A DNA stretch of 64,000 nucleotides, from NCBI GenBank assembly GCA_049687935.1, contig JBAVJU010000199.1:7727-71726 (forward strand). The letters run 5' to 3'. The DNA is from Desulfobacterales bacterium. GTDB lineage: Bacteria; Desulfobacterota; Desulfobacteria; Desulfobacterales; SG8-13. The position numbers and the translations under genes are program-made. The notes below the pieces were generated by a model that was given only the letters and a program-made list of their open reading frames with translations, was not told the DNA's origin and ran no database searches. The stretch's first letter is position 1. Each line of letters begins with the position of its first letter. Positions 5,285 to 48,898 of this stretch are shown piece after piece.

Positions 5285-7429
5285 TCAGCTGATGCGTTTG
5301 ACCTCCAGCACCTGTTTGACCTTTTTAAGCGACGACATTATCCGGTTCAGGTGCTCCGTATCTTCCACATCGATGGTGAACACGCTGTTGACGATCTTGT
5401 TTTCCTGAGTTTCAGTTTTGGCATTCAGTATGTTGGCTTCATTCTTGCTGATGTTGCTGACGACGTCGGCCAGCAGCCCGACACGGTCGTGGGAACGGAT
5501 GTAAATTTTTACCGGATACGTATCTGACTTTTCAATGTTCCACTCCACTTCGATTTGTCGGTCGGGAGTCATTTTCAGGGCATTGACGCAGCCCGCGCGG
5601 TGAACGGTCACGCCGTAGCCGCGGGTGATGTAGCCGGTGATCGAATCTCCCGGCACCGGTTGGCAGCACTTGCCGAATCGAATCAGAATATCATCGACTC
5701 CCTTGACCACCACCCCGCCTTTGGGCTTTTTCTTGCGCACCCGCCCGATGAGCTTGTTAAAGACTGACTCCCGCTTTTCTTCGCTTTCGGCTTTTGCTGT
5801 AAAGCGCCTTACCACCTGCAGAGGTGTGATCTTGCCGTAGCCCACGCTGGCGATCAAGTCTTCGACCGCTTTGAGCCCGAAGTGCTCCACTACCCGGTTC
5901 ATTTCGTCGGTTTTGATCAGTGCCGAAAAATTGAGCCGCTCCTTGCGGAATGCCTTTTCGCACATTTCCCTTCCGAGTGAGATGCTGCGGTCTTTTTCCT
6001 GGGTTTTGATCCATTGACGGATTTTTGAACGGGCCTTGACCGTCTTGACATACTTCAACCAGTCTTTGCTCGGCTGGTGGTTCTTTTGGGTTATGATCTC
6101 AATGACATCGCCGGTTTGCAGTTCGTACTGGAGCGGGACCATGCGGTCGTTGACCTTCGCTCCGACGCACTGGTCGCCAACCTCCGAGTGGATCATATAG
6201 GCGAAATCGACTGGCGTTGCCCCCTTGGGAAGCGTTTTTATTTCCCCGCGGGGGGTGAACACATAAACCTCGTCCGGGAAAAGGTCGATGCGCACGTTTT
6301 CCATGAATTCGCCCGGATCCCTGAAATTTTCCTGGTTTTCGACCAATTCCTGGATCCAGGTGTACATTCGACTCACCCGTTCGTCGACCTGCTTGCCTTC
6401 CTTATAGCCCCAGTGGGCGGCGATGCCCGATTTCGCCACCCGGTCCATTTCCCAGGTGCGGATTTGGACCTCCATCCGCTCGCCGTAGGGACCGAAAACC
6501 GTCGTGTGAAGCGACTGGTACATGTTGGGCTTAGGGCGGCTGATATAGTCCTTGAATTTAATGTCGATCGGTTTCCAGAGAGAATGAATCAAACCGAGGG
6601 TTTCGTAACAATGGGGGATGGTGTCGAGGATGATCCTGAAGGCGATGATGTCGTAGACGTCTTCGAAGGCCAGATTCTGACTCATCATTTTGTGGTAGAT
6701 GCTGTAGTAATTTTTGTTTCGACCCAGCACCTCGCACGTCAGGTTGGCTTCCTCCATTTTTTTCAGAATGTACTTCTTTACGGTTTCAACATATTTTTCG
6801 CGCTCCACCTGATCCTTGGCGACCAAATTGCTGATTCGTTCGTACTCATCGGGCAGCATGTACTTGAAAGAGGCGTCTTCGAGCTCCTTCTTGATCCAGT
6901 AGATGCCTAGCCGGGCGGATATCGGTGCGTAGATATCCATGGTTTCCCGGGCGATGTTGATTTTTTTCTTTTCACTGCTGTGATACTGGAGGGTCCGCAT
7001 GTTATGCAGGCGATCCGCAAGCTTGATCAGTATGACACGAATGTCGTCGGCCATGGCCAGCAGCATTTTGCGGATGCTCTCGGCCTGTCGGGCTTCGGAG
7101 CTGCTCAGGCGCAGTTTGCTCAGCTTGGTGACGCCGGAGACGATGTGAAGAACTTCGGGGCCGAAAATTTTCTCGATTTCTTCCGGTGTGGCCGCCGTAT
7201 CTTCGAGAACATCGTGCAGAAGACCGGCGGTGACGCTGATTTCATCGAGGTTCATGTCCGCGAGGATGCCGGAGACTTCCAGCGGATGAGACAGGTAGGG
7301 TTCACCTGAGAGGCGCACCTGGCCTTCGTGGACCCGCGCGGAATAAATATAGGCCCGTTCGATCAGGCTGAGGTCGGCCTCGGGGGAGTATTCGGCAACC
7401 TTGTCGAGGATGTCGGTAATTCGGATCAT
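5285..7429 (-). CDS. spoT: Bifunctional (p)ppGpp synthetase/hydrolase (RelA/SpoT family)
   Basis: 714 aa. It has the HD hydrolase motif (HPLEV...LHDVLEDT), a RelA/SpoT synthetase core (YRSLHTTV-like QSLHTTVFGP), and TGS and C-terminal ACT-like regions. Confidence 0.93.
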   Translation of the reverse strand: MIRITDILDKVAEYSPEADLSLIERAYIYSARVHEGQVRLSGEPYLSHPLEVSGILADMNLDEISVTAGLLHDVLEDTAATPEEIEKIFGPEVLHIVSGVTKLSKLRLSSSEARQAESIRKMLLAMADDIRVILIKLADRLHNMRTLQYHSSEKKKINIARETMDIYAPISARLGIYWIKKELEDASFKYMLPDEYERISNLVAKDQVEREKYVETVKKYILKKMEEANLTCEVLGRNKNYYSIYHKMMSQNLAFEDVYDIIAFRIILDTIPHCYETLGLIHSLWKPIDIKFKDYISRPKPNMYQSLHTTVFGPYGERMEVQIRTWEMDRVAKSGIAAHWGYKEGKQVDERVSRMYTWIQELVENQENFRDPGEFMENVRIDLFPDEVYVFTPRGEIKTLPKGATPVDFAYMIHSEVGDQCVGAKVNDRMVPLQYELQTGDVIEIITQKNHQPSKDWLKYVKTVKARSKIRQWIKTQEKDRSISLGREMCEKAFRKERLNFSALIKTDEMNRVVEHFGLKAVEDLIASVGYGKITPLQVVRRFTAKAESEEKRESVFNKLIGRVRKKKPKGGVVVKGVDDILIRFGKCCQPVPGDSITGYITRGYGVTVHRAGCVNALKMTPDRQIEVEWNIEKSDTYPVKIYIRSHDRVGLLADVVSNISKNEANILNAKTETQENKIVNSVFTIDVEDTEHLNRIMSSLKKVKQVLEVKRIS

Positions 7430-7535
7430 AGGCGATGCATAAAATTGTGTCCGATGGATTGCTTGTCACAAAAAAGTGTTCCCGATCCTTTTTCGATTGA
7501 ACACCGCAACCCTGAACCCGCAACGTTTAGCGATT

Positions 7536-9080
7536 TCAATAGGATTTGGCGAACACGACCCTTTGCGGTGACGGCTTACCGCAAGCGATGCATCCACCCG
7601 GAACTTTGTCATCGTTCAGCGCGCCTGGGAGGGGGATGCAGCGGATGGTCACGCCGAGATCCTCTTTAATGGCCGTTTCGCACGCTGCGTCACCGCACCA
7701 GTGCGAGAGTGCGAACCCGCCATGAATTTCGGGTTTTTCTTTGTCTGAAGGTGTAAAATAATCATAAAAGGACTTTTTTTCATCGATCACTGTCGTATAG
7801 GTCTTTTGGAAAGCCAGCGCGCGATCGAATAAAGCGTGTTGAATGCTGTCGAGGATATCGGTGATTTCGGCGACAAACCGGTCGCGTTTGACGGAGACTT
7901 TTTCGCGGTGATCCCGATCCCGGCGACCGACGAAAACAGATTCTGCGGCGATGTCCCGGGGGCCGATTTCGACCCGCAGCGGAATGCCTTTCTTGATCCA
8001 TTCCCATCCTCTGGCACCGCCGATATCACGCGCGTCGATTTCCACCTCGATCGACCGCCGACCGTAGTGCTTCTCTCTCAGTGCCTCGGCCAGACTGTCG
8101 ACATACGGCATCACCAGGGCGCTCTCCTCTGCATTCCGTACAATGGGCAGCAAAACGACATGTGCCGGCGCGACCCGAGGCGGCAGGAGGATGCCGTTGT
8201 CGTCGCCGTGGGTCATGATCAGACCGCCGATCAGTCGTGTTGACGCACCCCAGGAAGTGGTCCAGGCGAACTGCTCCTGTTCGTTGGCATCTTGATACCG
8301 GATGCCCGAAGCCCGGGCAAAATTTTGACCGAGAAAGTGAGACGTACCGGCTTGCAAAGCGCGACGATCCTGCATCATCGCTTCGACGCACAGTGTGTCC
8401 ACCGCACCTGGAAATCTTTCCCCCGCCGTTTTACGGCCCTTGATGACCGGAATGGCAAGGTGCTTTTCGGCGAGTTCGGCGTAGACGTCAAGCATCATAA
8501 GGGTCCTTGCGAGGGCTTCTTCCTCGGTTGCGTGCGCCGTGTGCCCCTCCTGCCACAAGAATTCACTGGTTCTTAAAAATACCCTGGTCCGCATTTCCCA
8601 GCGGACGACATTGGCCCATTGATTGATGAGAATGGGGAGGTCCCGGTAGCTGTTGATCCACTTCGAAAAGGAGTCACCGATGATCGTTTCCGATGTCGGT
8701 CTCACGACAAGGGGTTCCGTAAGGGGGCCGGCCGGCACGAGGCCCCCTTCCGGCCCTTTTTCGAGACGGTGGTGTGTGACGACGGCACATTCCTTGGCGA
8801 ACCCCTCGATGTGTTCGGCTTCCTTCTCGAGAAAACTCAGCGGGATAAAAAGCGGAAAGTAGGCATTTTTCACCCCGGTGGCCTTGAACATCGCGTCCAG
8901 TTCGCTCACAATGTTTTCCCAGAGGCTGTACCCCCAAGGTTTGATTACCATGCACCCGCGTACGGGTGATTTTTCCGCAAGGTCGGAAGCTTTTACGACT
9001 TGTTGATACCACTCGGAATAATCTTCTTCCCGGGTGGGAGTGATGGCCGTTTTCGGTTGTTGCAGTTTACCCATTCTCAT
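7536..9080 (-). CDS. proS: Proline--tRNA ligase (archaeal/eukaryote-like type)
   Basis: N-terminus ITPTREEDYSEWYQQVV with class II motifs. The size is about 510 aa and there is no INS editing domain. Confidence 0.92.
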   Translation of the reverse strand: MRMGKLQQPKTAITPTREEDYSEWYQQVVKASDLAEKSPVRGCMVIKPWGYSLWENIVSELDAMFKATGVKNAYFPLFIPLSFLEKEAEHIEGFAKECAVVTHHRLEKGPEGGLVPAGPLTEPLVVRPTSETIIGDSFSKWINSYRDLPILINQWANVVRWEMRTRVFLRTSEFLWQEGHTAHATEEEALARTLMMLDVYAELAEKHLAIPVIKGRKTAGERFPGAVDTLCVEAMMQDRRALQAGTSHFLGQNFARASGIRYQDANEQEQFAWTTSWGASTRLIGGLIMTHGDDNGILLPPRVAPAHVVLLPIVRNAEESALVMPYVDSLAEALREKHYGRRSIEVEIDARDIGGARGWEWIKKGIPLRVEIGPRDIAAESVFVGRRDRDHREKVSVKRDRFVAEITDILDSIQHALFDRALAFQKTYTTVIDEKKSFYDYFTPSDKEKPEIHGGFALSHWCGDAACETAIKEDLGVTIRCIPLPGALNDDKVPGGCIACGKPSPQRVVFAKSY

Positions 9081-40845: not shown

Positions 40846-41673
40846 ATGTGGGAATATACCGAAAAAGTGAAGGATCACTTTCTGAATCCACGCAATGTGG
40901 GCGTGATCGAGGACCCCGACGGGATCGGCGAGGTCGGTTCTCTTTCTTGCGGGGATGCCCTTAAACTGATGTTTAAACTCGATGCGTCCGGACGTATCGG
41001 AGACGTCAAATTTCAGACTTTCGGTTGCGCCAGCGCCATTGCTTCTTCATCGGCGTTGACCGAAATGATCAAAGGCCTGACGCTCGAAGAAGCGGCCAAG
41101 ATCACCAATGAGGATATCGCCCGGTATCTTGGTGACTTGCCCAAAGAAAAGATGCACTGCTCGGTCATGGGGCGCGATGCTCTGGAGAAAGCCATCGCTT
41201 ATTACCGCGGGGAACCGGAACAAAAGGTCGAGGGTGAAATCGTTTGCGAATGTTTCGGCGTCACCGACCGCGAGATCGAGCGGGCCGTCAGGGAAAACCA
41301 CCTGCGAACCATCGAGGATGTGACCTCGTATGTCAAGGCCGGGGGTGGCTGCGGAAACTGTCACGATCGGATTCAGGAAATCATCGATTCGATCCTCGGC
41401 ACCGAGCGGCCCGCTGCCAAAAAACCGCCGAAGTTGAGCAACATTCAAAAGATCAGGCTGATAGAGGAAACCCTGGAGCGGGAAATCAAGCCGGCCTTGC
41501 AGAAAGACGGCGGCGGCATCGAGCTCGTCGACGTGGACGGCAACACGGTGATAGTGCGCTTGTGCGGCACCTGCTCCGCGTGCAGCGCCTCACAGGTCAC
41601 ACTGAAAAACTATGTCGAAACCAAGCTTCAGGAGCTGGTGACGCCTGAACTTGTGGTAGAGGAGGTGGCCTGA
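40846..41673 (+). CDS. nifU: Fe-S cluster assembly scaffold NifU (three-domain)
   Basis: IscU-like N-terminus (GSLSCGD...FGCASAIASS...HCS), a central BFD-like CECFGVTDREIE...GGGCGNC, and C-terminal CGTCSAC. Confidence 0.92.
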   Translation: MWEYTEKVKDHFLNPRNVGVIEDPDGIGEVGSLSCGDALKLMFKLDASGRIGDVKFQTFGCASAIASSSALTEMIKGLTLEEAAKITNEDIARYLGDLPKEKMHCSVMGRDALEKAIAYYRGEPEQKVEGEIVCECFGVTDREIERAVRENHLRTIEDVTSYVKAGGGCGNCHDRIQEIIDSILGTERPAAKKPPKLSNIQKIRLIEETLEREIKPALQKDGGGIELVDVDGNTVIVRLCGTCSACSASQVTLKNYVETKLQELVTPELVVEEVA

Positions 41674-42845
41674 TGAAAACCGTATATGTCGACAACAATG
41701 CCACGAGCCGCATCGCGCCGGAAGTCCTCGACGCGATGATGCCCTATCTGACGGAACGCTACGGAAACCCGTCCAGCATGCACAGCTTCGGCGGGACGGT
41801 GGGCCTGGACATCAGGGACGCCCGGACCAAAGTGGCCGCCCTGATCGGTGCCGCACCCGATGAGATCGTTTTTACCAGCTGCGGCACCGAAAGCGACAGC
41901 ACGGCGATCTGGGCCGCCCTCAACTCGTATCCCACCAAGAAACACATCGTTACCACCCGGGTGGAACATCCAGCGGTCAAAAACCTTTGCGAAACGCTGA
42001 CCAAGAGAGGCTACCGGGTGACCTTCGTGCCCGTGGACGGCGAGGGCCGGCTGGATCTCGACCATCTGAAACGGCACCTCAGTGACGACACGGCGCTGGT
42101 CAGCGTGATGTGGGCCAACAACGAAACCGGGGTTATCTTTCCCATCCGGGAGATCGGGGAGCTGGTCAGAGATAAAGGAATCGTTTTCCATACCGATGCC
42201 GTCCAGGCCGCCGGAAAGATACCGGTGGATGTCAAGGCGGACGGTGTGGACATGCTCTCCTTGTCGGGTCACAAAATCCATGCTCCTAAAGGGGTCGGCG
42301 TCCTTTACGTTCGCAAGGGAACCAAGTTTTCCCCATTCCTCATCGGCGGTCACCAGGAACACGGTCGCCGGGGCGGCACCGAGAACGCGGCGTCGATCAT
42401 CGGTCTCGGCAAAGCCTGCGAACTGGCTCAAAAACATTATATAAAGGACATGGTACGGGTGAAACAGTTGCGGGACAAGCTGGAATCCGGGCTGCTGGAA
42501 AAAATCCCCCATGCCGTTGTCAACGGTGATCGAAAAAGCCGGCTGCCGAACACCACCAGCATTGCCTTCGAGTATGTCGAGGGCGAATCGATCCTGCTGA
42601 TGCTGAACGAGTACGGCATCTGTGCCTCGTCAGGTTCGGCCTGTACCTCCGGTTCGCTGGAACCGTCGCACGTTTTACGGGCCATGGGGGTGCCTTTCAC
42701 GGCGGCACATGGTTCCATCCGCTTCAGCCTGAGCACCTATAACACGGAGGAAGACATCGATTTTATCATTGAAAAAATGCCACCGATCATCGAACGCTTG
42801 CGGAGCATGTCACCCTATTGGAAAGAAGCTGTCGGGGCAACTTAA
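41673..42845 (+). CDS. nifS: Cysteine desulfurase NifS
   Basis: YVDNNATS, SGHKIHAPKG (PLP Lys) and SSGSACTS active-site Cys. The start overlaps the nifU stop. Confidence 0.93.
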   Translation: MKTVYVDNNATSRIAPEVLDAMMPYLTERYGNPSSMHSFGGTVGLDIRDARTKVAALIGAAPDEIVFTSCGTESDSTAIWAALNSYPTKKHIVTTRVEHPAVKNLCETLTKRGYRVTFVPVDGEGRLDLDHLKRHLSDDTALVSVMWANNETGVIFPIREIGELVRDKGIVFHTDAVQAAGKIPVDVKADGVDMLSLSGHKIHAPKGVGVLYVRKGTKFSPFLIGGHQEHGRRGGTENAASIIGLGKACELAQKHYIKDMVRVKQLRDKLESGLLEKIPHAVVNGDRKSRLPNTTSIAFEYVEGESILLMLNEYGICASSGSACTSGSLEPSHVLRAMGVPFTAAHGSIRFSLSTYNTEEDIDFIIEKMPPIIERLRSMSPYWKEAVGAT

Positions 42846-43048: not shown

Positions 43049-44347
43049 TCATGGAATGGATCGCTGATGCGGGTCAAAATGAGGACTCCCCGTTACCTCA
43101 CGGAGTTTTTCCTGGAGATTAGAATCGGTGACGTGTTCGAAATTGTGGGCGTGTCGGTGAACATCCTCATGGCAGTATCCCATTACGTTACATAGATACG
43201 TTTCCCATAAGCGATGGGAGCGGATTAATCCCTTTGCTATCTGTTTACCTTTGTTTGTTAGGACCAACTTTTCTTTTTCTGCTTGAACCAATCCTCGTCT
43301 CAAGAGTCTCCATACCATCAGACGGACGGTGGACTTGGCGTTGAGCGCAAGTTGCAACTCATTGATCGAAACAGGTGCCGCGTCCAGCGTTGACAGTTCC
43401 TGATAGCGGTAGAGAAAGCCCAATATATCGTCACCTACGATGCTCAATCCTAGACGAAGCTGGTTGAGTGCCCTTCCAATCACCCCATAGCGCGGTGCAA
43501 AAAGAAATACCAAAAGAAACAACAAACCGGTGGTAAGGGCCATCATACCAGCTGTACTTGTGTCCTGAAAACCAAACCATTGCGGAACGGTAATGGCGCC
43601 TAAATGCCCAAAAACAGCAGAAAGAATAGCAAAGACAATACTCAACGAGAGCATATTGTACAAACGGTCAGTAATCAAGTGTGCCGCTGCTCCGGGAACG
43701 ATCAGCATCGCAATAACCAGAATGCTGCCCACGCTTTCAAATGCGGCGACAGTGGTTGCCGCCACCAGGGTCATAAGTGCGTAGTGCATGAGGTTGGCAT
43801 TGATACCCATAGTAGTCGCCAGGTTCGGATCGAAGGCGGTGATTCTAAGTTCTTTGAAAAATGCGATCACGAAAATCGAGTTAGCGATTAGCATCATCCC
43901 GCTGGTTATGGCGGCCCGGGGAATATCATGACCAAATAGCAGCACCGTGTCCAGCGGGGCAAGTTCGATAGCCCCGTAAAGAACACAACTCGGATCCAGA
44001 TCCACATGATCGGCCGCCTGACGAATGAGGATCAATCCAATAGCGAACAATGTGGTAAAAACGACTCCCATGGACGCTCCGCGATCGAGTCCGCTGAGCC
44101 GATCGATGCTCTGGATCAACGACGTGGTCGCCACCCCGATTAGAATGGCTCCCAATAGCATGGGCAGGCTGTCTCGGCTACCGGTGACTAAAAATGCGAT
44201 GGCTAACCCCGGAAGCACGGCATGGCTGATGGCGTCACCCATCATACTCATGCGTCTGAGCACAAGATAGTTTCCCAACAGTGCACAGGAGGCGGCGCTC
44301 AGGGCCCCAACCACCGCAATCCATGTATCGATAAAGGTCCATTCCAC
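43049..44347 (-). CDS. Metal ABC transporter permease fused to C-terminal DtxR-like repressor domain
   Basis: The ABC-3 permease body covers the first ~290 aa. The tail is ...RLMVWRLLRRGLVQAEKEKLVLTNKGKQIAKGLIRSHRLWETYL...EHV...FDPHQRSIP (DtxR HTH plus dimerisation-like). Confidence 0.85.
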   Translation of the reverse strand: MEWTFIDTWIAVVGALSAASCALLGNYLVLRRMSMMGDAISHAVLPGLAIAFLVTGSRDSLPMLLGAILIGVATTSLIQSIDRLSGLDRGASMGVVFTTLFAIGLILIRQAADHVDLDPSCVLYGAIELAPLDTVLLFGHDIPRAAITSGMMLIANSIFVIAFFKELRITAFDPNLATTMGINANLMHYALMTLVAATTVAAFESVGSILVIAMLIVPGAAAHLITDRLYNMLSLSIVFAILSAVFGHLGAITVPQWFGFQDTSTAGMMALTTGLLFLLVFLFAPRYGVIGRALNQLRLGLSIVGDDILGFLYRYQELSTLDAAPVSINELQLALNAKSTVRLMVWRLLRRGLVQAEKEKLVLTNKGKQIAKGLIRSHRLWETYLCNVMGYCHEDVHRHAHNFEHVTDSNLQEKLREVTGSPHFDPHQRSIP

Positions 44348-44349
44348 AG

Positions 44350-45786
44350 TCAGTGGGCTCCTTTCATATCGGTCAACCGGTGGGGACTGGGTGGCGGATC
44401 ATGCTCTCTACCTGCATCCAATAGCGTTTTCAAACTTCGGATAATGTCCGGATCCAGGACATGCTCGATGCGGTCGGCGCTTAGATCCACCATACCTGGG
44501 GCCACATCGGCATGGGTGATCAGGTAGGTTTCCCAAAGCCGGTGGCGGAGAACGATTTCGCGAGCGGCAGTCCTTCCAATTTCGGTAAGCCGAATCGTTC
44601 CATCATTGGGTTGGCGGATCAGTCCCTGACGATTCAGTCTACGCAAGGTACGCTTCAGGTCCTTCGTCGACCACGCCCGACGAAGCATGAGCGTTCCTGC
44701 CCGTGGTGCCCGCTTGTCTCCATCGGTCAAGGTCTCCCCCCATTCGTGTAAATCCCTGAGCAGATTTTCGTTCATGATTTTGCGTTGAAGTCGCAATCGA
44801 TCCAGACCCAGACGCAGCAACCCTCGGGTCGACCCGAAGACCATGCTGATTAAGAAAAAAAAGGACGCAACCAGGACGATGACGGCCCCAGCAGGCAGGT
44901 TGGCCATCAATGCAGACATGCCCGAACCAAGGAAACCGCTCAGCGCACCAAAAAGCCCCGAGAGGCCGAGCAGCATAGGCAAACGATGGGTCCAGAAGCG
45001 GGCAGACGCGGCCGGAATGATCAGCAAAGCCACAACCAATATCAATCCCACGGCCTGGAGACCGATCACCGTCACCAGGACAACAAGGGTCATCATTAGA
45101 AGATCGAGCCGTGTCACGGGCCAGCCCTGTGTTCGACCAAAATCTTCATCAAAACAGATCAGGGAGAACTCCTTGAATAGTGCGATGCAGGCAATTGCGG
45201 CCACCAAAGCCGTGACAGCAATTAAAAGAGCATCCGAGAATAACATGGATGCTGTCTTGCCATAAATAAACGACGACAGACCGGCGGCGTTGCCCGCGTC
45301 CATGCGAGTGGCCATACCCATCAAGGCGATACCCAGACCGAAATAGACACTCAAAACGATGCCTAATGCCGCATCGTCTTTCAACCGCGAGAAACGTTGA
45401 ATGACCAATACAGATGCGGTGCCAAATACTGCAAAGATTGCCGCACCAACAATGAGTGCCAGAAGCTGTTTGCCATCACCAGTTAGCAGCGTCATAACGA
45501 TAAACGCCAGGGCAATACCCGGTAATGTAGCGTGGCTGAGTGTATCGCTGAGCAGCGCGCGCTTGCGCAACACCAGGAAGGTACCGATCAGTCCCGCAGC
45601 CAGGCCGAGCAGGGTCGTTCCGACCACCACCACTCTGGTATTGTAGTCTTGAAAGGTGAACACCCGTATCAGGTCATCCAATGGCCCAATAGTGTCAACC
45701 GTCTGGGCGTTAGCCAAAGGCACTGCCAGCAGCATAAACAGCAAAATGGCTCCAAACAGACTGATCCCCTTTGCGTTTAAGTCCAT
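44350..45786 (-). CDS. Metal ABC transporter permease fused to C-terminal DtxR-like repressor domain
   Basis: ABC-3 permease body followed by ...LKRTLRRLNRQGLIRQPNDGTIRLTEIGRTAAREIVLRHRLWETYL...ADRIEHVLDPD. Confidence 0.85.
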   Translation of the reverse strand: MDLNAKGISLFGAILLFMLLAVPLANAQTVDTIGPLDDLIRVFTFQDYNTRVVVVGTTLLGLAAGLIGTFLVLRKRALLSDTLSHATLPGIALAFIVMTLLTGDGKQLLALIVGAAIFAVFGTASVLVIQRFSRLKDDAALGIVLSVYFGLGIALMGMATRMDAGNAAGLSSFIYGKTASMLFSDALLIAVTALVAAIACIALFKEFSLICFDEDFGRTQGWPVTRLDLLMMTLVVLVTVIGLQAVGLILVVALLIIPAASARFWTHRLPMLLGLSGLFGALSGFLGSGMSALMANLPAGAVIVLVASFFFLISMVFGSTRGLLRLGLDRLRLQRKIMNENLLRDLHEWGETLTDGDKRAPRAGTLMLRRAWSTKDLKRTLRRLNRQGLIRQPNDGTIRLTEIGRTAAREIVLRHRLWETYLITHADVAPGMVDLSADRIEHVLDPDIIRSLKTLLDAGREHDPPPSPHRLTDMKGAH

Positions 45787-45789
45787 GAC

Positions 45790-46617
45790 TCATCCTTGGG
45801 CGGAAGGAAAGTGAGGTCCTTTGGCCACCTCATCCAGCGCCTGGCTTAGGAGGGTGAGGCGGCCGCCATAGGTTTTCTTGAGGTTTTCTTCGTTAAAAAC
45901 CGTGTCGACAGGACCGGCGGCCACCAGGCGCATGTTTAAAAGCACCACATGATCGAAATAGGTGGGCACGGTCTGAAGGTCGTGATGGACGACCACACAA
46001 GTTTTCCCTGCAGCTTTGAGTTCCTTGAGCAGAGCGATGATAGCGCGTTCGGTGGCCACGTCAACGCCGGCAAACGGTTCATCCATAAAATAAATCTGCG
46101 CATCCTGGGCGAGTGCTCTGGCAAGAAAGACCCGTTGCTGCTGGCCGCCAGAAAGCTGGCTAATCTGACGCTTGGCGAAATTGGCCATGCCCACTTTTTC
46201 CAGAGCCTCCATGGCGGTTTGACGGTGAGATCGGCCAACCGGTCGGAACCAGCCGATGCGCCGATATAGCCCCATGGCCACCACTTCGAGAGCATTTACT
46301 GGGAAATCCCAGTCGACACTCTCACGCTGGGGGACATACCCTACCAAATGCCGCTGGGTTTCATAGGACTCGCCGTAAATGGTCACCGATCCTGACGCAC
46401 AGGGCACCAGCCCTAACACTGCCTTAATAAATGTGCTCTTGCCGGCACCGTTTGGGCCAACAACGGCAATCAGCCGGCCTTCGGGCAGCGTCAGATCGAT
46501 GTCCCAAAGCACAGGCTTGCGATGGTAGGCGACGGTAAGGTCGTTGACCCAAAGCGAAGCCTCCTCGGGTAGTGGCGTTGTTGGGGAGGATTGGATTGAT
46601 TGCTGGGATTGAGCCAT
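45790..46617 (-). CDS. Metal ABC transporter ATP-binding protein
   Basis: Walker A GPNGAGKST, signature LSGGQQQR and Walker B IYFMDEP. Confidence 0.9.
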   Translation of the reverse strand: MAQSQQSIQSSPTTPLPEEASLWVNDLTVAYHRKPVLWDIDLTLPEGRLIAVVGPNGAGKSTFIKAVLGLVPCASGSVTIYGESYETQRHLVGYVPQRESVDWDFPVNALEVVAMGLYRRIGWFRPVGRSHRQTAMEALEKVGMANFAKRQISQLSGGQQQRVFLARALAQDAQIYFMDEPFAGVDVATERAIIALLKELKAAGKTCVVVHHDLQTVPTYFDHVVLLNMRLVAAGPVDTVFNEENLKKTYGGRLTLLSQALDEVAKGPHFPSAQG

Positions 46618-46670
46618 ATCTACTCTTACCCTTCTTGGTTGAATCTCCGGATGCTAAAAGGTTGACGATT

Positions 46671-47663
46671 TCAATCTGTTGAAAGCTTGTCCTGCATGCC
46701 CTTGGCGGGAACCTTACCACCCAAGGCCATGGCAATAACCGTAATGTTGTGGTCGATCATACCTTCATAAGTACCTTCGTAGGTGCCGGGAGGCCCCATG
46801 GCATCGGAGAAAAGGCTACCGCCGATAATGACCCGGTGGCCCCGGGCAGCCGCCCCCTCGATGAGGGCCTTGACATTCTTGTCCGAAACGCTGGTTTCCA
46901 CAAAGACGGCGGGTATGCGACGGTTTACCAACAGGTCCACCAGTCGGTTGATATCCTTGAGTCCGGCCTCCGATTCGGTCGAAATTCCTTGAATGCCCTT
47001 CACCTCGATGCCGTAAGCCCGTCCCATGTAATTGAAGGCGTCATGGGCCGTAAGCAGGACACGTTGATTTTCAGGAATAGAATTGATCGCCGTGCGGGCA
47101 TATTCGTCCAGACGCTCAAGACGGGATAGATAGGCGTCGGCATTTTTCCGATACCCAGCAGCGCCCGCAGGGTCAAATTCGGTAAACGCGTTTGAGACCA
47201 CCTCCACGGCCTTACTCCATCCTTGGACGTCCATCCAAACATGTGGATCATGGTGGCCGGTTTGTGCATCACGCAGCAGATAGTCGTCACTTAAAAGCTC
47301 CGTGACGGCGTAGACTGGCCGTTTGAGGGATATCTTGGCCAAAATATCTGTCATTTGGCCTTCCAGTAACAAGCCCGAGTAAAAAATAATATCCGATTTG
47401 AGCAGCACGGCGACATCGCTACGGGTGGGGCTGTAAACATGCGGATCCACCCCTGAGCCGATGATATTGGTCACCTTGGCCCTATCACCAGCGACTTCGC
47501 GAACAATATCGGCCACCATTCCCACGGTGGCACCGGTACGGATGGGGTAGTCGCCATTAAAAGTCTTGGTCAAGGCCGGTGTCGCTCCCAGCAACATCGT
47601 CACGGTAGTCAGGATTATTGAACGAGTCCATACCAAATGCCACATGCGCAATAATATCGTCAT
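46671..47663 (-). CDS. Metal ABC transporter substrate-binding protein (TroA/MntC/ZnuA, cluster A-I)
   Basis: Signal peptide. DPHVYSPT...DPHVWMD...AHDAFNYM metal-ligand motifs. Confidence 0.88.
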   Translation of the reverse strand: MTILLRMWHLVWTRSIILTTVTMLLGATPALTKTFNGDYPIRTGATVGMVADIVREVAGDRAKVTNIIGSGVDPHVYSPTRSDVAVLLKSDIIFYSGLLLEGQMTDILAKISLKRPVYAVTELLSDDYLLRDAQTGHHDPHVWMDVQGWSKAVEVVSNAFTEFDPAGAAGYRKNADAYLSRLERLDEYARTAINSIPENQRVLLTAHDAFNYMGRAYGIEVKGIQGISTESEAGLKDINRLVDLLVNRRIPAVFVETSVSDKNVKALIEGAAARGHRVIIGGSLFSDAMGPPGTYEGTYEGMIDHNITVIAMALGGKVPAKGMQDKLSTD

Positions 47664-47725
47664 AATGCCCCCTTGCCATTTTTCTGGAAACTGACGAGTG
47701 ACACAAAAGAATAAGTCTAAAAAAG

Positions 47726-47741
47726 TTTAGGTCAACCTAGA
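47726..47741 (-). promoter_or_regulatory. Inverted repeat with DtxR-box-like half sites overlapping a candidate -35
   Basis: The minus strand reads TCTAGGTTGACCTAAA. TTGACC-16 nt-TATTCT could be the promoter of the ABC operon. The half-site spacing differs from the canonical 19-bp DtxR box. Confidence 0.3.
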
Positions 47742-47864
47742 AATATTTTTTGGGCAATAGAGCTTTCTGGATGCAGACGTGCAAGATCAGCATGGATTCC
47801 CCACGAATCAGAAGATTTTCGGAGTCAAATGGAATTACGGTGGATCTGGAGTTTAATCGCACGT

Positions 47865-48536
47865 TCAATCGGGTAAAACGTATATGTGCTCGGCGGCCTT
47901 AAGGCCGATTACCGTGCCATGAGAACCTCGATCGGTGATTATTTGCAAACTTATGGTCTCATCGACAGGGGACTGAGAAACGACTTTACCAATACTGTCG
48001 ATGCCAAGACCCAAAGTATCAAGGTAAGTGAGTATGCCATCCATACCAGGATCAACGCGCACGATGCGAAATTTTTCTCCAGGGTTTAGAAAGGTTAACT
48101 TTTCGCCTATTGGTGAACTCATCACACCCGATCCGTCGGGTATCGGTTCGCCGTGGGGGTCCCGTTTAGGATGACTCAAAAGGGCGTCCATAGCATGGAC
48201 CACGCGCTCCGATAAGTGATGTTCAAGCGTTTCTGCTTCCTCGTGGACTGAGTCCCAGTCCAGCTTTAGAATACGATAAAGGAACGTTTCCAACAGACGG
48301 TGCCTGCGGATAACAGCCATTGCTTTCAATCGGCCCTGCCGGGTAAGGGTTGCGCCGTGATGCTGTCGGTAATCTATCAAAGGCGGTGACATGCCGGCCA
48401 TGCGTTTAAGCATCTCGGATACCGAACCGGAGGAAATACCTAGGTTTTCTGCCAGTGCTCCTGTTTTGGCAATGCTTTCCTTCTCCTGGAGAGCATATAT
48501 CGTTTTCAAATAATCTTCGACTGAGGTTGAAGGCAT
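47865..48536 (-). CDS. DtxR/MntR-family metal-dependent transcriptional regulator with C-terminal SH3/FeoA-like domain
   Basis: VEDYLKTIYAL...RRHRLLETFL...EHHLS...DPHGEPIP. I prefer the start at the ATG at 48536. Confidence 0.88.
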   Translation of the reverse strand: MPSTSVEDYLKTIYALQEKESIAKTGALAENLGISSGSVSEMLKRMAGMSPPLIDYRQHHGATLTRQGRLKAMAVIRRHRLLETFLYRILKLDWDSVHEEAETLEHHLSERVVHAMDALLSHPKRDPHGEPIPDGSGVMSSPIGEKLTFLNPGEKFRIVRVDPGMDGILTYLDTLGLGIDSIGKVVSQSPVDETISLQIITDRGSHGTVIGLKAAEHIYVLPD

Positions 48537-48872
48537 TGAGTCACAATCCTGATGGGATCCTATCCAGACAATTATGTTCTTACTATACCACAATAACGTA
48601 CGATTTCGAAACTTGGCATTACTTGCCAAAAGCCGGAAATTAAGGCCGTAAAATGAGACATCAACATATTGTGGTCGACGAGATTGTTGGAAAATTGTGA
48701 TTACAACACGATTTTTGGATTGGTGCTGCTACTATTGTGGATGAATTTTGATTTTTTTCGATTTGAAACAAGGCAGGCACCGTCGGTTGCTGAAAGCCAA
48801 TGAGCTTGTGGCCCAACGAGGCCCCTATGTGGCCCCCTTCGCTGTAAACCCTTGCCAGCCGTGGGGGCACTT

Positions 48873-48898
48873 GGGTTCGACTCCCGCCGCCTCAGCCA
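48873..48898 (+). other. Orphan tRNA 3'-end fragment (T-loop plus acceptor plus CCA; tRNA-Gln-like)
   Basis: GGGTTCGACTCCCGCCGCCTCAGCCA contains a TTCGACT T-loop, the 3' T-stem CCCGC, the acceptor strand CGCCTCA, G73 and CCA. No complementary 5' half is found upstream. Confidence 0.45.

Follow-up and report, generated by a model that had tools for sequence, protein, structure and literature searches.

The window analysed here, a stretch of 64,000 nucleotides from a Desulfobacterales bacterium (assembly GCA_049687935.1, contig JBAVJU010000199.1, positions 7,727 to 71,726 of the forward strand), contains an operon for a TroABCD/YtgABCD-type metal importer (cluster A-I, ABC-3), identified as such by Pfam, PDB alignments and Foldseek, in which each of the two permeases is predicted, from sequence comparison and structural models, to end in a complete two-domain DtxR-type module made of a winged helix-turn-helix (HTH) and a metal-binding/dimerisation domain. 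A single permease–DtxR fusion is already known; the doubled version is conserved across several bacterial phyla. Judging from their sequences, the tails fall into two ancient paralog classes that are not interchangeable and are co-inherited across phyla. We tentatively propose, with a confidence that falls just short of even, that the tails act like the Chlamydia repressor YtgR, pairing beneath the transporter as an asymmetric heterodimeric metal sensor that represses transcription.

DtxR-like modules at the C-termini of both permeases

The two permeases and their tails are encoded as follows (aa, amino acids):
44350–45786, minus strand: permease 1, 478 aa, with an extra N-terminal hydrophobic helix, an ABC-3 core (residues 49–317) and a class-1 tail (Pfam, AlphaFold2)
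44353–44820, minus strand: permease 1 stalk helix and class-1 DtxR module, residues 323–478 (AlphaFold2, PDB alignment)
43049–44347, minus strand: permease 2, 432 aa, with an ABC-3 core (residues 11–283) and a class-2 tail (Pfam, AlphaFold2, Foldseek)
43052–43483, minus strand: permease 2 stalk helix and class-2 DtxR module, residues 289–432 (AlphaFold2, Foldseek, PDB alignments)

The ABC-3 cores are matched by Pfam with E-values of 2.9e-58 (permease 1) and 1.5e-45 (permease 2). For the tails, the initial annotation of the window had proposed a DtxR-family HTH followed by a dimerisation signature. In a hidden Markov model (HMM) search of the two C-termini, the dimerisation half was recovered directly, since Fe_dep_repr_C (PF02742, cut-off 27 bits) matches residues 401–458 of permease 1 (8.3e-13, 48.6 bits) and residues 364–432 of permease 2 (2.9e-21, 75.7 bits); the HTH half was not recognised by its Pfam model, Fe_dep_repress, and was recovered through its fold and through NCBIfam and PDB comparisons. 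Among the NCBIfam MntR/DtxR models, residues 316–432 of permease 2 align to residues 23–141 of MntR. In phmmer searches against the PDB, both tails align to DtxR, IdeR and MntR from the recognition helix onward, the permease 1 tail to residues 32–131 of DtxR and the permease 2 tail to residues 4–130 of Mycobacterium tuberculosis MntR (5zr4), as well as to IdeR, SloR, ScaR and DtxR.

The AlphaFold2 models (predicted local distance difference test scores of 76.8 for permease 1, model mc73bef1fe269, and 81.6 for permease 2, model m19672eb460e6) give both tails the full topology α1–α2–α3–wing–α4–α5–α6; in permease 2, helix α2 spans residues 328–335, α3 339–350, the wing 354–363 and α4 365–388, followed by α5 and α6. 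In both models, a single unbroken helix of about 30 residues (323–352 in permease 1, 289–318 in permease 2) links the last transmembrane helix to helix α1 of the DtxR module. With Foldseek, about 132 residues of the permease 2 tail match whole two-domain repressors with template modelling (TM) scores of 0.75–0.80, including DR2539 (8pvt, 0.79) and IdeR (2it0, 0.80), the DNA-bound structures 8pw0 and 2it0/1u8r being among the matches. According to Pfam and AlphaFold2, both tails stop after α6, with no third, SH3-like/FeoA domain. Such a domain is present in DtxR, IdeR, TroR and SloR and absent in Bacillus subtilis MntR.

Residues 1–285 of the permease 2 model have a PsaC-like type II fold, matching the Mn2+ permease PsaC (7kyp) with a TM score of 0.86. 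Because PsaC has nine transmembrane helices and was expressed and purified with a C-terminal green fluorescent protein (PMC8346216), the C-termini of the permeases, and hence the tails, are likely to be cytoplasmic. Note that permease 1 starts with an extra hydrophobic helix (45727–45786, residues 1–20; residues 3–20 in the AlphaFold2 model) followed by a low-confidence loop, and that permease 2 lacks such a helix. The sequence of this extension varies among orthologs and is not conserved; added to a nine-helix PsaC-like core, it would place the N-terminus in the cytoplasm.

That the tails might be mis-joined small genes, as the initial annotation had warned, or frameshift products or functionless relics, seems extremely improbable. 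Both reading frames are continuous in the window, and of the 120 homologues listed for each permease nearly all are full length with the same Pfam architecture (118 of 120 for permease 1), which amounts to more than 100 full-length orthologs per permease and to hundreds altogether; moreover, the metal ligands are invariant across phyla and AlphaFold2 folds both tails confidently. Split calls do occur in public assemblies, but they are indel errors. In the nearest relative (L085 5561–6998, ENA ERZ25039499 contig_45239; 95% DNA identity), permease 1 is called as two proteins of 382 and 112 aa because that contig has one inserted nucleotide next to a T8 homopolymer, the window version being intact. 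In the long-read metagenome contigs L082, L083, L084 and L085, single-base indels at homopolymers split the fused permeases as well as neighbouring genes for the solute-binding protein (SBP); the false ‘stand-alone DtxR-like’ proteins that result are now found throughout protein databases and clusters.

Many proteins of 125–180 aa that start at the linker or at the last transmembrane helix were likewise rejected as proof that the module is autonomous: in the profile search such stand-alone tails lay mostly on contigs of 1–2 kb, and the three on long contigs were frameshift artefacts whose adjoining genes were split too. Since all the split versions checked on long contigs were artefacts of this kind, physical tethering is essentially always kept.

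The sole real stand-alone tail belongs to a finished genome, that of Desulfosarcina variabilis str. Montpellier (NZ_CP159846.1, L007 6944–7414, plus strand). This protein of 156 aa consists of the stalk helix and the class-2 DtxR module alone and is 61% identical to the tail of the window; no permease, SBP or ATPase gene lies within 7 kb on either side, there is a space of about 58 nt upstream with no clear ribosome-binding site, and the gene looks like the remnant of an operon deletion. It is divergent from a DUF1007-like gene, a family that also flanks the operon of Desulfosarcina ovata: a NicO-family and DUF1007 pair (a putative Ni/Co-type transporter) lies divergently upstream of the D. 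ovata operon (L001 2789–4431) and beside the remnant tail of D. variabilis (L007 6238–6942), hinting at a shared metal-regulated intergenic region.

Two tail classes and the spread of the dual fusion

The distribution of the fusions was surveyed with the class-2 peptide LIRSHRLWE, taken from a seven-sequence tail alignment, in a scan that included a single genome for each species. The exact peptide occurs in 190 species-level genomes, and the best 80 loci, together with D. ovata and the window, gave 82 loci that were annotated by six-frame HMM search. Because the seed is a class-2 motif, all proportions drawn from the survey are conditional on it, and loci with a class-1 tail fused alone or with an altered motif would be missed. 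Both permeases are fused in 56 of the 82 loci, in the order SBP–ATPase–fused–fused, which makes the dual fusion the commonest form; as it extends to several phyla, it is no peculiarity of the window. It is found in Desulfobacterales (Desulfosarcina, Desulfatitalea, Desulfococcaceae), in Planctomycetota (Pirellulales, Planctomycetaceae, Phycisphaerae), and in Lentisphaerae (Lentisphaerales), Sumerlaeota, Kiritimatiellae and Verrucomicrobiota. A strong free DtxR gene stands beside the operon, on either strand, in 14 of the 42 dual loci that have enough upstream sequence. A separate search with the permease 2 tail retrieved 353 representatives of 50%-identity clusters at E ≤ 1e-10, with an ABC-3 part in 68 of the best 150. 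Public databases annotate the dual-fusion proteins merely as ‘metal ABC transporter permease’.

Other arrangements comprise one unfused and one fused permease (L073), a single fused permease in an Ignavibacteria locus (L075) and, in about 19 Pirellula-group genomes, an orphan class-2 fused permease with no SBP or ATPase gene nearby (L039, L042, L044, L047, L049, L052, L054, L055 and L057; further cases in L061, L062, L064, L065, L067, L071, L072, L074, L077 and L078). In L067, from a metagenome-assembled genome related to Pirellula staleyi, the orphan permease (6092–7423) is followed 7 nt downstream by a DUF676/alpha-beta-hydrolase gene (7430–8545). The Pirellula orphan may be a membrane-anchored sensor derived from a permease or a subunit of a transporter encoded elsewhere.

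The two classes of tails are readily told apart by their signatures. Class 1 reads ENLLR...RSWS...HRLWE.YLITHADVAP..VD..AD.IEHVL and lacks DPHG; class 2 reads (D/E)DILG.LYR..E...LT..G...LIRSHRLWE.YL...VH..A..EH.TD...DPH(G/Q)..IP and has DPHG, as do the free regulators, whose signature comprises EDYLK.IY, tpGsvT.M.KrL, RRHRLLEtFL and EAE.LEH. In helix α4, HRLWE.YL is common to both tail classes, in place of the HRLLE.FL of the free regulators. For 112 of 112 tails the nearest cross-clade neighbour is of the same class, and cross-clade identity within a class (0.41 and 0.38) exceeds the identity between classes, which is 0.26 even inside one operon. It follows that the pair of tails is old and has been passed on together, whether by descent or by transfer.

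The metal-ligand signature of the tails proved real, at positions 79, 83, 98, 102, 105 and 106 (DtxR numbering) in both: these residues are H, E, D, D, E and H in window permease 1, and H, E, H, H, E and H in window permease 2, which has in addition the helix-1 D and DPH. Among the dual loci, H79, E83, E105 and H106 are present in 54–56 of 56 in both classes, and they are invariant in 15 free regulators. The remaining positions are class-specific: class 1 has D at both 98 and 102 and N or H as its helix-1 ligand, whereas class 2 has H at 98, E or H at 102 and D as its helix-1 ligand. Altogether, the class 1 set H79, E83, D98, D102, E105 and H106 is conserved in 52–56 of the 56 loci.

Across the 56 dual loci a reciprocal swap can be seen, class 1 helix-1 N going with class 2 H102 in Desulfobacterales, and helix-1 H with E102 in the other phyla. 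It looks compensatory between the tails. As statistical support it was rejected: perfectly reciprocal as it is, the swap is fully confounded with clade and therefore counts as about one evolutionary event.

The locus, its free regulator and candidate operators

The other features of the locus are:
47865–48536, minus strand: free DtxR-family regulator, TroR/MntR-like, 223 aa, with winged HTH, metal-binding/dimerisation and FeoA/SH3-like domains (Pfam)
46671–47663, minus strand: periplasmic SBP of the TroA type, cluster A-I, 330 aa (Pfam ZnuA, 253.7 bits)
45790–46617, minus strand: ATP-binding cassette (ABC) ATPase, 275 aa (Pfam ABC_tran, residues 39–183)
47708–47735, minus strand: sigma-70-like promoter of the transporter operon, −35 TTGACC, 16-nt spacer, −10 TATTCT (consensus match, 9/12)
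47724–47743, minus strand: candidate operator TTTCTAGGT-TG-ACCTAAACT, centred on the −35 hexamer (sequence)
48612–48631, minus strand: second palindrome TTTTGGCAAGTAATGCCAAG, upstream of the free regulator gene, candidate autoregulatory site (sequence)

Five co-directional minus-strand genes thus lie within 43049–48536, in the order regulator, SBP, ATPase, permease 1 and permease 2. The open reading frames and Pfam bear out the Tro/Mnt-type succession SBP–ATPase–permease–permease originally described for this locus, and the importer is predicted to carry Mn2+, Fe2+ or Zn2+. The closest solved structure to the SBP is Treponema pallidum TroA (1toa/1k0f, 247.5 bits), every other solved SBP scoring at most 149 bits, and the alignment retains DPH, DPH, TAHD and FSD (His/His/His/Asp), which we take to be the four metal-ligand motifs of TroA. 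The top NCBIfam models for the ATPase are Mn/Fe ABC ATPases, and Pfam yields ABC_tran alone, with no C-terminal regulatory domain. Stop-to-start spacing is 3 nt between the ATPase and permease 1 genes and 2 nt between the two permease genes.

The free regulator is, as was first noted, a full DtxR/MntR protein with an SH3-like domain, encoded immediately upstream of the operon: all three Pfam domains exceed their cut-offs (PF01325 55.5 bits, PF02742 103.1 bits, PF04023 34.5 bits). Its top NCBIfam model is MntR, with 129.6 bits, under the equivalog cut-off. The gene starts at an ATG, with a product beginning MPSTSVEDYLKTIY; the mechanical reading frame reaches an upstream TTG at 48629. The ligand positions comprise a D at the D8-like position, H79, E83, H98, E102, E105, H106 and DPHG.

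A candidate operator had been placed at 47726–47741 in the initial annotation. This site proves to be a degenerate copy (14/20) of a 20-bp Desulfobacterales palindrome, AATTTTGGT-TG-ACCAAAATT, which occurs in cleaner form, and in the corresponding position, upstream of the SBP gene in L001, L002, L003, L009, L011–L014, L016, L019 and L021; it is, however, more likely to belong to the free regulator than to the tails, as the palindrome is present at 10 of 11 Desulfobacterales loci with an adjacent free DtxR gene and at 2 of 11 without one (Fisher p = 0.0019, phylogeny not controlled). On the strength of this co-occurrence we provisionally assign the palindrome to the free regulator. D. ovata has the palindrome yet no adjacent free DtxR gene. 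Related loci keep TTGACC with a spacer of 16–17 nt. The second palindrome adjoins a promoter-like site whose −35 box is at 48609 and whose −10 box ends at 48582, and its half-sites resemble the TTTTGGC..GCCAAAA of L016 and L019, with a different spacing.

A de novo palindrome search of the non-Desulfobacterales promoters revealed an iron-box-like motif, TTGTAGC-N4-GCTACAA, at six or seven loci of Planctomycetota and Sumerlaeota; it takes the place of the AT-rich palindrome of Desulfobacterales and lies upstream of the SBP gene in the dual-fusion operons of L031, L035, L046, L059, L070, L076 and L079, and some loci with this motif have no free DtxR gene within ±7 kb.

As for the surroundings, two plus-strand reading frames convergent with the operon (40846–42845) resemble, judging by their translation, a NifU-type scaffold and a NifS-type cysteine desulfurase; if this reading is correct, genes for Fe–S cluster assembly adjoin the metal importer. 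Scans of the locus for tRNA, tmRNA and Rfam families were negative. Upstream of the regulator gene, the plus-strand stretch 48873–48890, GGGTTCGACTCCCGCCGC, is similar to the T-arm and acceptor 3′ half of a tRNA, at a place where neither ARAGORN nor Rfam makes a call; it may be the scar of a tRNA fragment (att-like), and a 13-nt GC-rich inverted repeat lies beside it at 48832–48868.

Known relatives and the possible pairing and output of the tails

In the usual picture a soluble repressor samples the cytoplasm and the transporter is a separate entity, YtgC–YtgR of Chlamydia being treated as a reduced-genome oddity. References for the Chlamydia trachomatis fusion are Akers 2011 and Thompson 2012. 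YtgR is released from YtgC by cleavage and acts as an iron-dependent repressor of ytgABCD and trpBA (PMC5599777, PMC6504234), and a review (PMC5599777) credits Thompson et al. 2012 with having reported permease–repressor fusions from 11 phyla. In the searchable literature, where Thompson et al. 2012 was consulted via that review, no description was found of a dual heterotypic fusion or of its coexistence with a free regulator. Within that literature, the initial annotation is thus supported in regarding the doubled arrangement as undescribed; permease–repressor fusions as such were already known more widely.

The choice of YtgC–YtgR as the system to compare was apt, both permeases of the window being single-ORF fusions of ABC-3 and DtxR-like parts. 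As in YtgABCD, a TroA-like SBP, an ATPase and two ABC-3 permeases share one operon; as in YtgC, an ABC-3 permease carries a C-terminal DtxR-like domain with conserved metal ligands, a likeness of architecture and not one of sequence alignment; and the PVC group, in which dual fusions are common, includes the Chlamydiae. In Chlamydia, however, YtgC is fused and YtgD is not, whereas both permeases of the window are fused, to two distinct classes of tails. YtgR is also the only known iron regulator of Chlamydia, whereas the window encodes a free DtxR-family regulator as well, and cleavage and DNA binding have been shown for YtgR, whereas the tails of the window are known from sequences and models.

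Similarly, the TroABCD–TroR system of T. pallidum shares with the window a TroA-type SBP, the order SBP–ATPase–permease–permease, a free DtxR protein in the locus and an AT-rich palindromic operator overlapping the promoter (a candidate in the window). In T. pallidum neither TroC nor TroD is fused, and TroR is encoded after troD; in the window, by contrast, DtxR modules are found on both permeases and the free regulator is encoded upstream. With DtxR, IdeR and MntR (1ddn, 2it0, 8pvt, 5zr4) the tails have in common the two-domain fold and the ligand positions 79, 83, 98, 102, 105 and 106, and the free regulator of the window is a canonical three-domain member of this family. The tails differ from these repressors in being attached to the membrane through helix α1, in lacking the SH3-like domain, in escaping the Pfam HTH model and in having a signature of their own (EDILxxLYRxEE, HRLWExYL). 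Finally, MetNI with its C2 domain, ModBC with its regulatory domain and MalK carry their sensors on the ATPase, and these are not DNA-binding folds. They resemble the window system in having paired ligand-sensing domains on a dimeric importer, which could sense the imported substrate in the cytoplasm, and differ in that the sensors of the window sit on the permeases and its ATPase has no extra domain.

In the YtgR-like scheme that we favour, each transporter would contain one copy of each permease, so that the two tails would be held side by side. They would probably pair through the DtxR dimerisation domain, giving an asymmetric heterodimer that hangs under the transporter, where it would be placed to see imported metal first, and the metal-loaded sensor module would shut the system down. 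Metal-dependent transcriptional repression, exerted while tethered or after proteolytic release, would be the likeliest output because of the homology with YtgC–YtgR. The free TroR/MntR-like regulator would form a separate, conventional layer, most likely binding the palindrome lying across the −35 box of the operon promoter. The heterodimeric or membrane-tethered regulation initially suggested for this locus is consistent with the tails being ancient, distinct and co-inherited paralogs.

Several points weigh against this scheme. The Pfam HTH model PF01325 matched neither tail at E < 0.01. The linker is a confident rigid helix in both AlphaFold2 models, not a disordered tether that would be obviously cleavable, a feature that decides neither for nor against cleavage. 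The sole conserved Desulfobacterales operator tracks the free regulator, hence no operator can be assigned to the tails, and many operons already adjoin a conventional repressor, which makes a second and a third look redundant. The arguments for heterodimerisation are two, stoichiometry and paralog conservation, and no experimental characterisation of any dual-fusion system was found in the searchable literature. Finally, the HTH is less conserved in the tails: across the same 15 genomes, its pairwise identity is 0.36 in class 1 and 0.28 in class 2, against 0.43 in the free regulators, the values for the metal/dimer half being 0.64, 0.55 and 0.66, respectively. These figures suggest a modest relaxation of the HTH rather than its loss. 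The net charge of the HTH and wing is +4.8 and +3.9 in the tails and +4.3 in the free repressors; given this retained positive charge the tails still look like DNA binders, and the recognition helix of window permease 2 retains the pattern S-T-V-x-x-M-V-x-R-L. Loss of the HTH, considered as an argument for pure gating, is thus not decisive, since the drop in conservation is modest (0.28–0.36 vs 0.43) and the charge is kept.

The main rival, which we consider unlikely though not lightly dismissed, is trans-inhibition: the tail dimer would stay attached and, at high cytoplasmic metal, lock the permeases or the ATPase in an inactive state, as the regulatory domains of MetNI and ModBC do, with a sensor borrowed from a repressor fold and placed on the membrane subunits, and it would fall to the free TroR/MntR-like regulator to control transcription. 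The rigid, unbroken stalk of about 30 residues that runs from membrane to sensor in both AlphaFold2 models speaks for it, as do the persistence of the fusion, which the loci examined essentially always keep intact, as expected if physical coupling matters, the presence of a sensor on both membrane subunits, with the pseudo-two-fold symmetry typical of the regulatory domains of ABC importers, and the free repressor and its operator, which share the locus and co-vary; the HTH, with its lower conservation relative to the metal/dimer half and its failure to match the Pfam model, points the same way. The homologous domain of Chlamydia, however, is experimentally a DNA-binding repressor, and pure gating would offer no obvious reason for keeping a full winged HTH fold with the positive charge of a repressor. 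We know of no precedent for a regulatory domain fused to the transmembrane domain of an ABC importer, which tells against trans-inhibition, as do the ATPase without any partner domain and the Pirellula orphan fused permeases that exist without a nearby ATPase or SBP gene.

A bolder variant, which we find doubtful, would make the tails an obligate heterodimeric sensor built into the importer, acting as an exit flux sensor and gating the transporter allosterically through the stalk helices, possibly while docking promoter DNA at the membrane. Less probable again is that the tails are two independent repressors, each homodimerising, released or tethered, with different metal preferences and regulons, their placement on the permeases serving merely to produce them in stoichiometric amounts with the transporter. 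The class-specific ligands (D98 and D102 with helix-1 N or H, versus H98, E or H102, helix-1 D and DPHG) do suggest different metal selectivities, class 2 can presumably homodimerise since its tails occur on single fused permeases (L075 of Ignavibacteria, the Pirellula orphans), in homodimeric or orphan assemblies, and one fused tail suffices in Chlamydia. Yet both classes are inherited together in 56 of the 82 loci, loss of one being rare, the tail-specific HRLWE.YL shared on helix α4 fits a common tail-specific interface, and both tails are forced close together within one transporter. If the tails do pair, as in the YtgR-like scheme, they would form a DtxR-family heterodimer; to our knowledge, the members of this family all act as homodimers.

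Of the surveyed loci from free-living Desulfobacterales and many PVC bacteria, the dual heterotypic fusion is the most frequent form, and it often lies beside a conventional repressor; this suggests that a transporter with built-in sensors can do something that a soluble regulator cannot, such as flux sensing, transporter counting or direct gating. Named strains, among them D. ovata (L001) and Novipirellula herctigrandis CA13 (L030), have the arrangement in their finished or draft genomes and should be more tractable than Chlamydia. The pair of tails also provides an evolutionary frame, in which YtgCR may be seen as the loss of one tail. If the heterodimer that gates the importer from within were real, it would represent a regulatory principle new for the membrane subunits of ABC importers, derived from a recruited repressor fold, and Chlamydia YtgCR would be the reduced descendant of an ancestral two-sensor machine.

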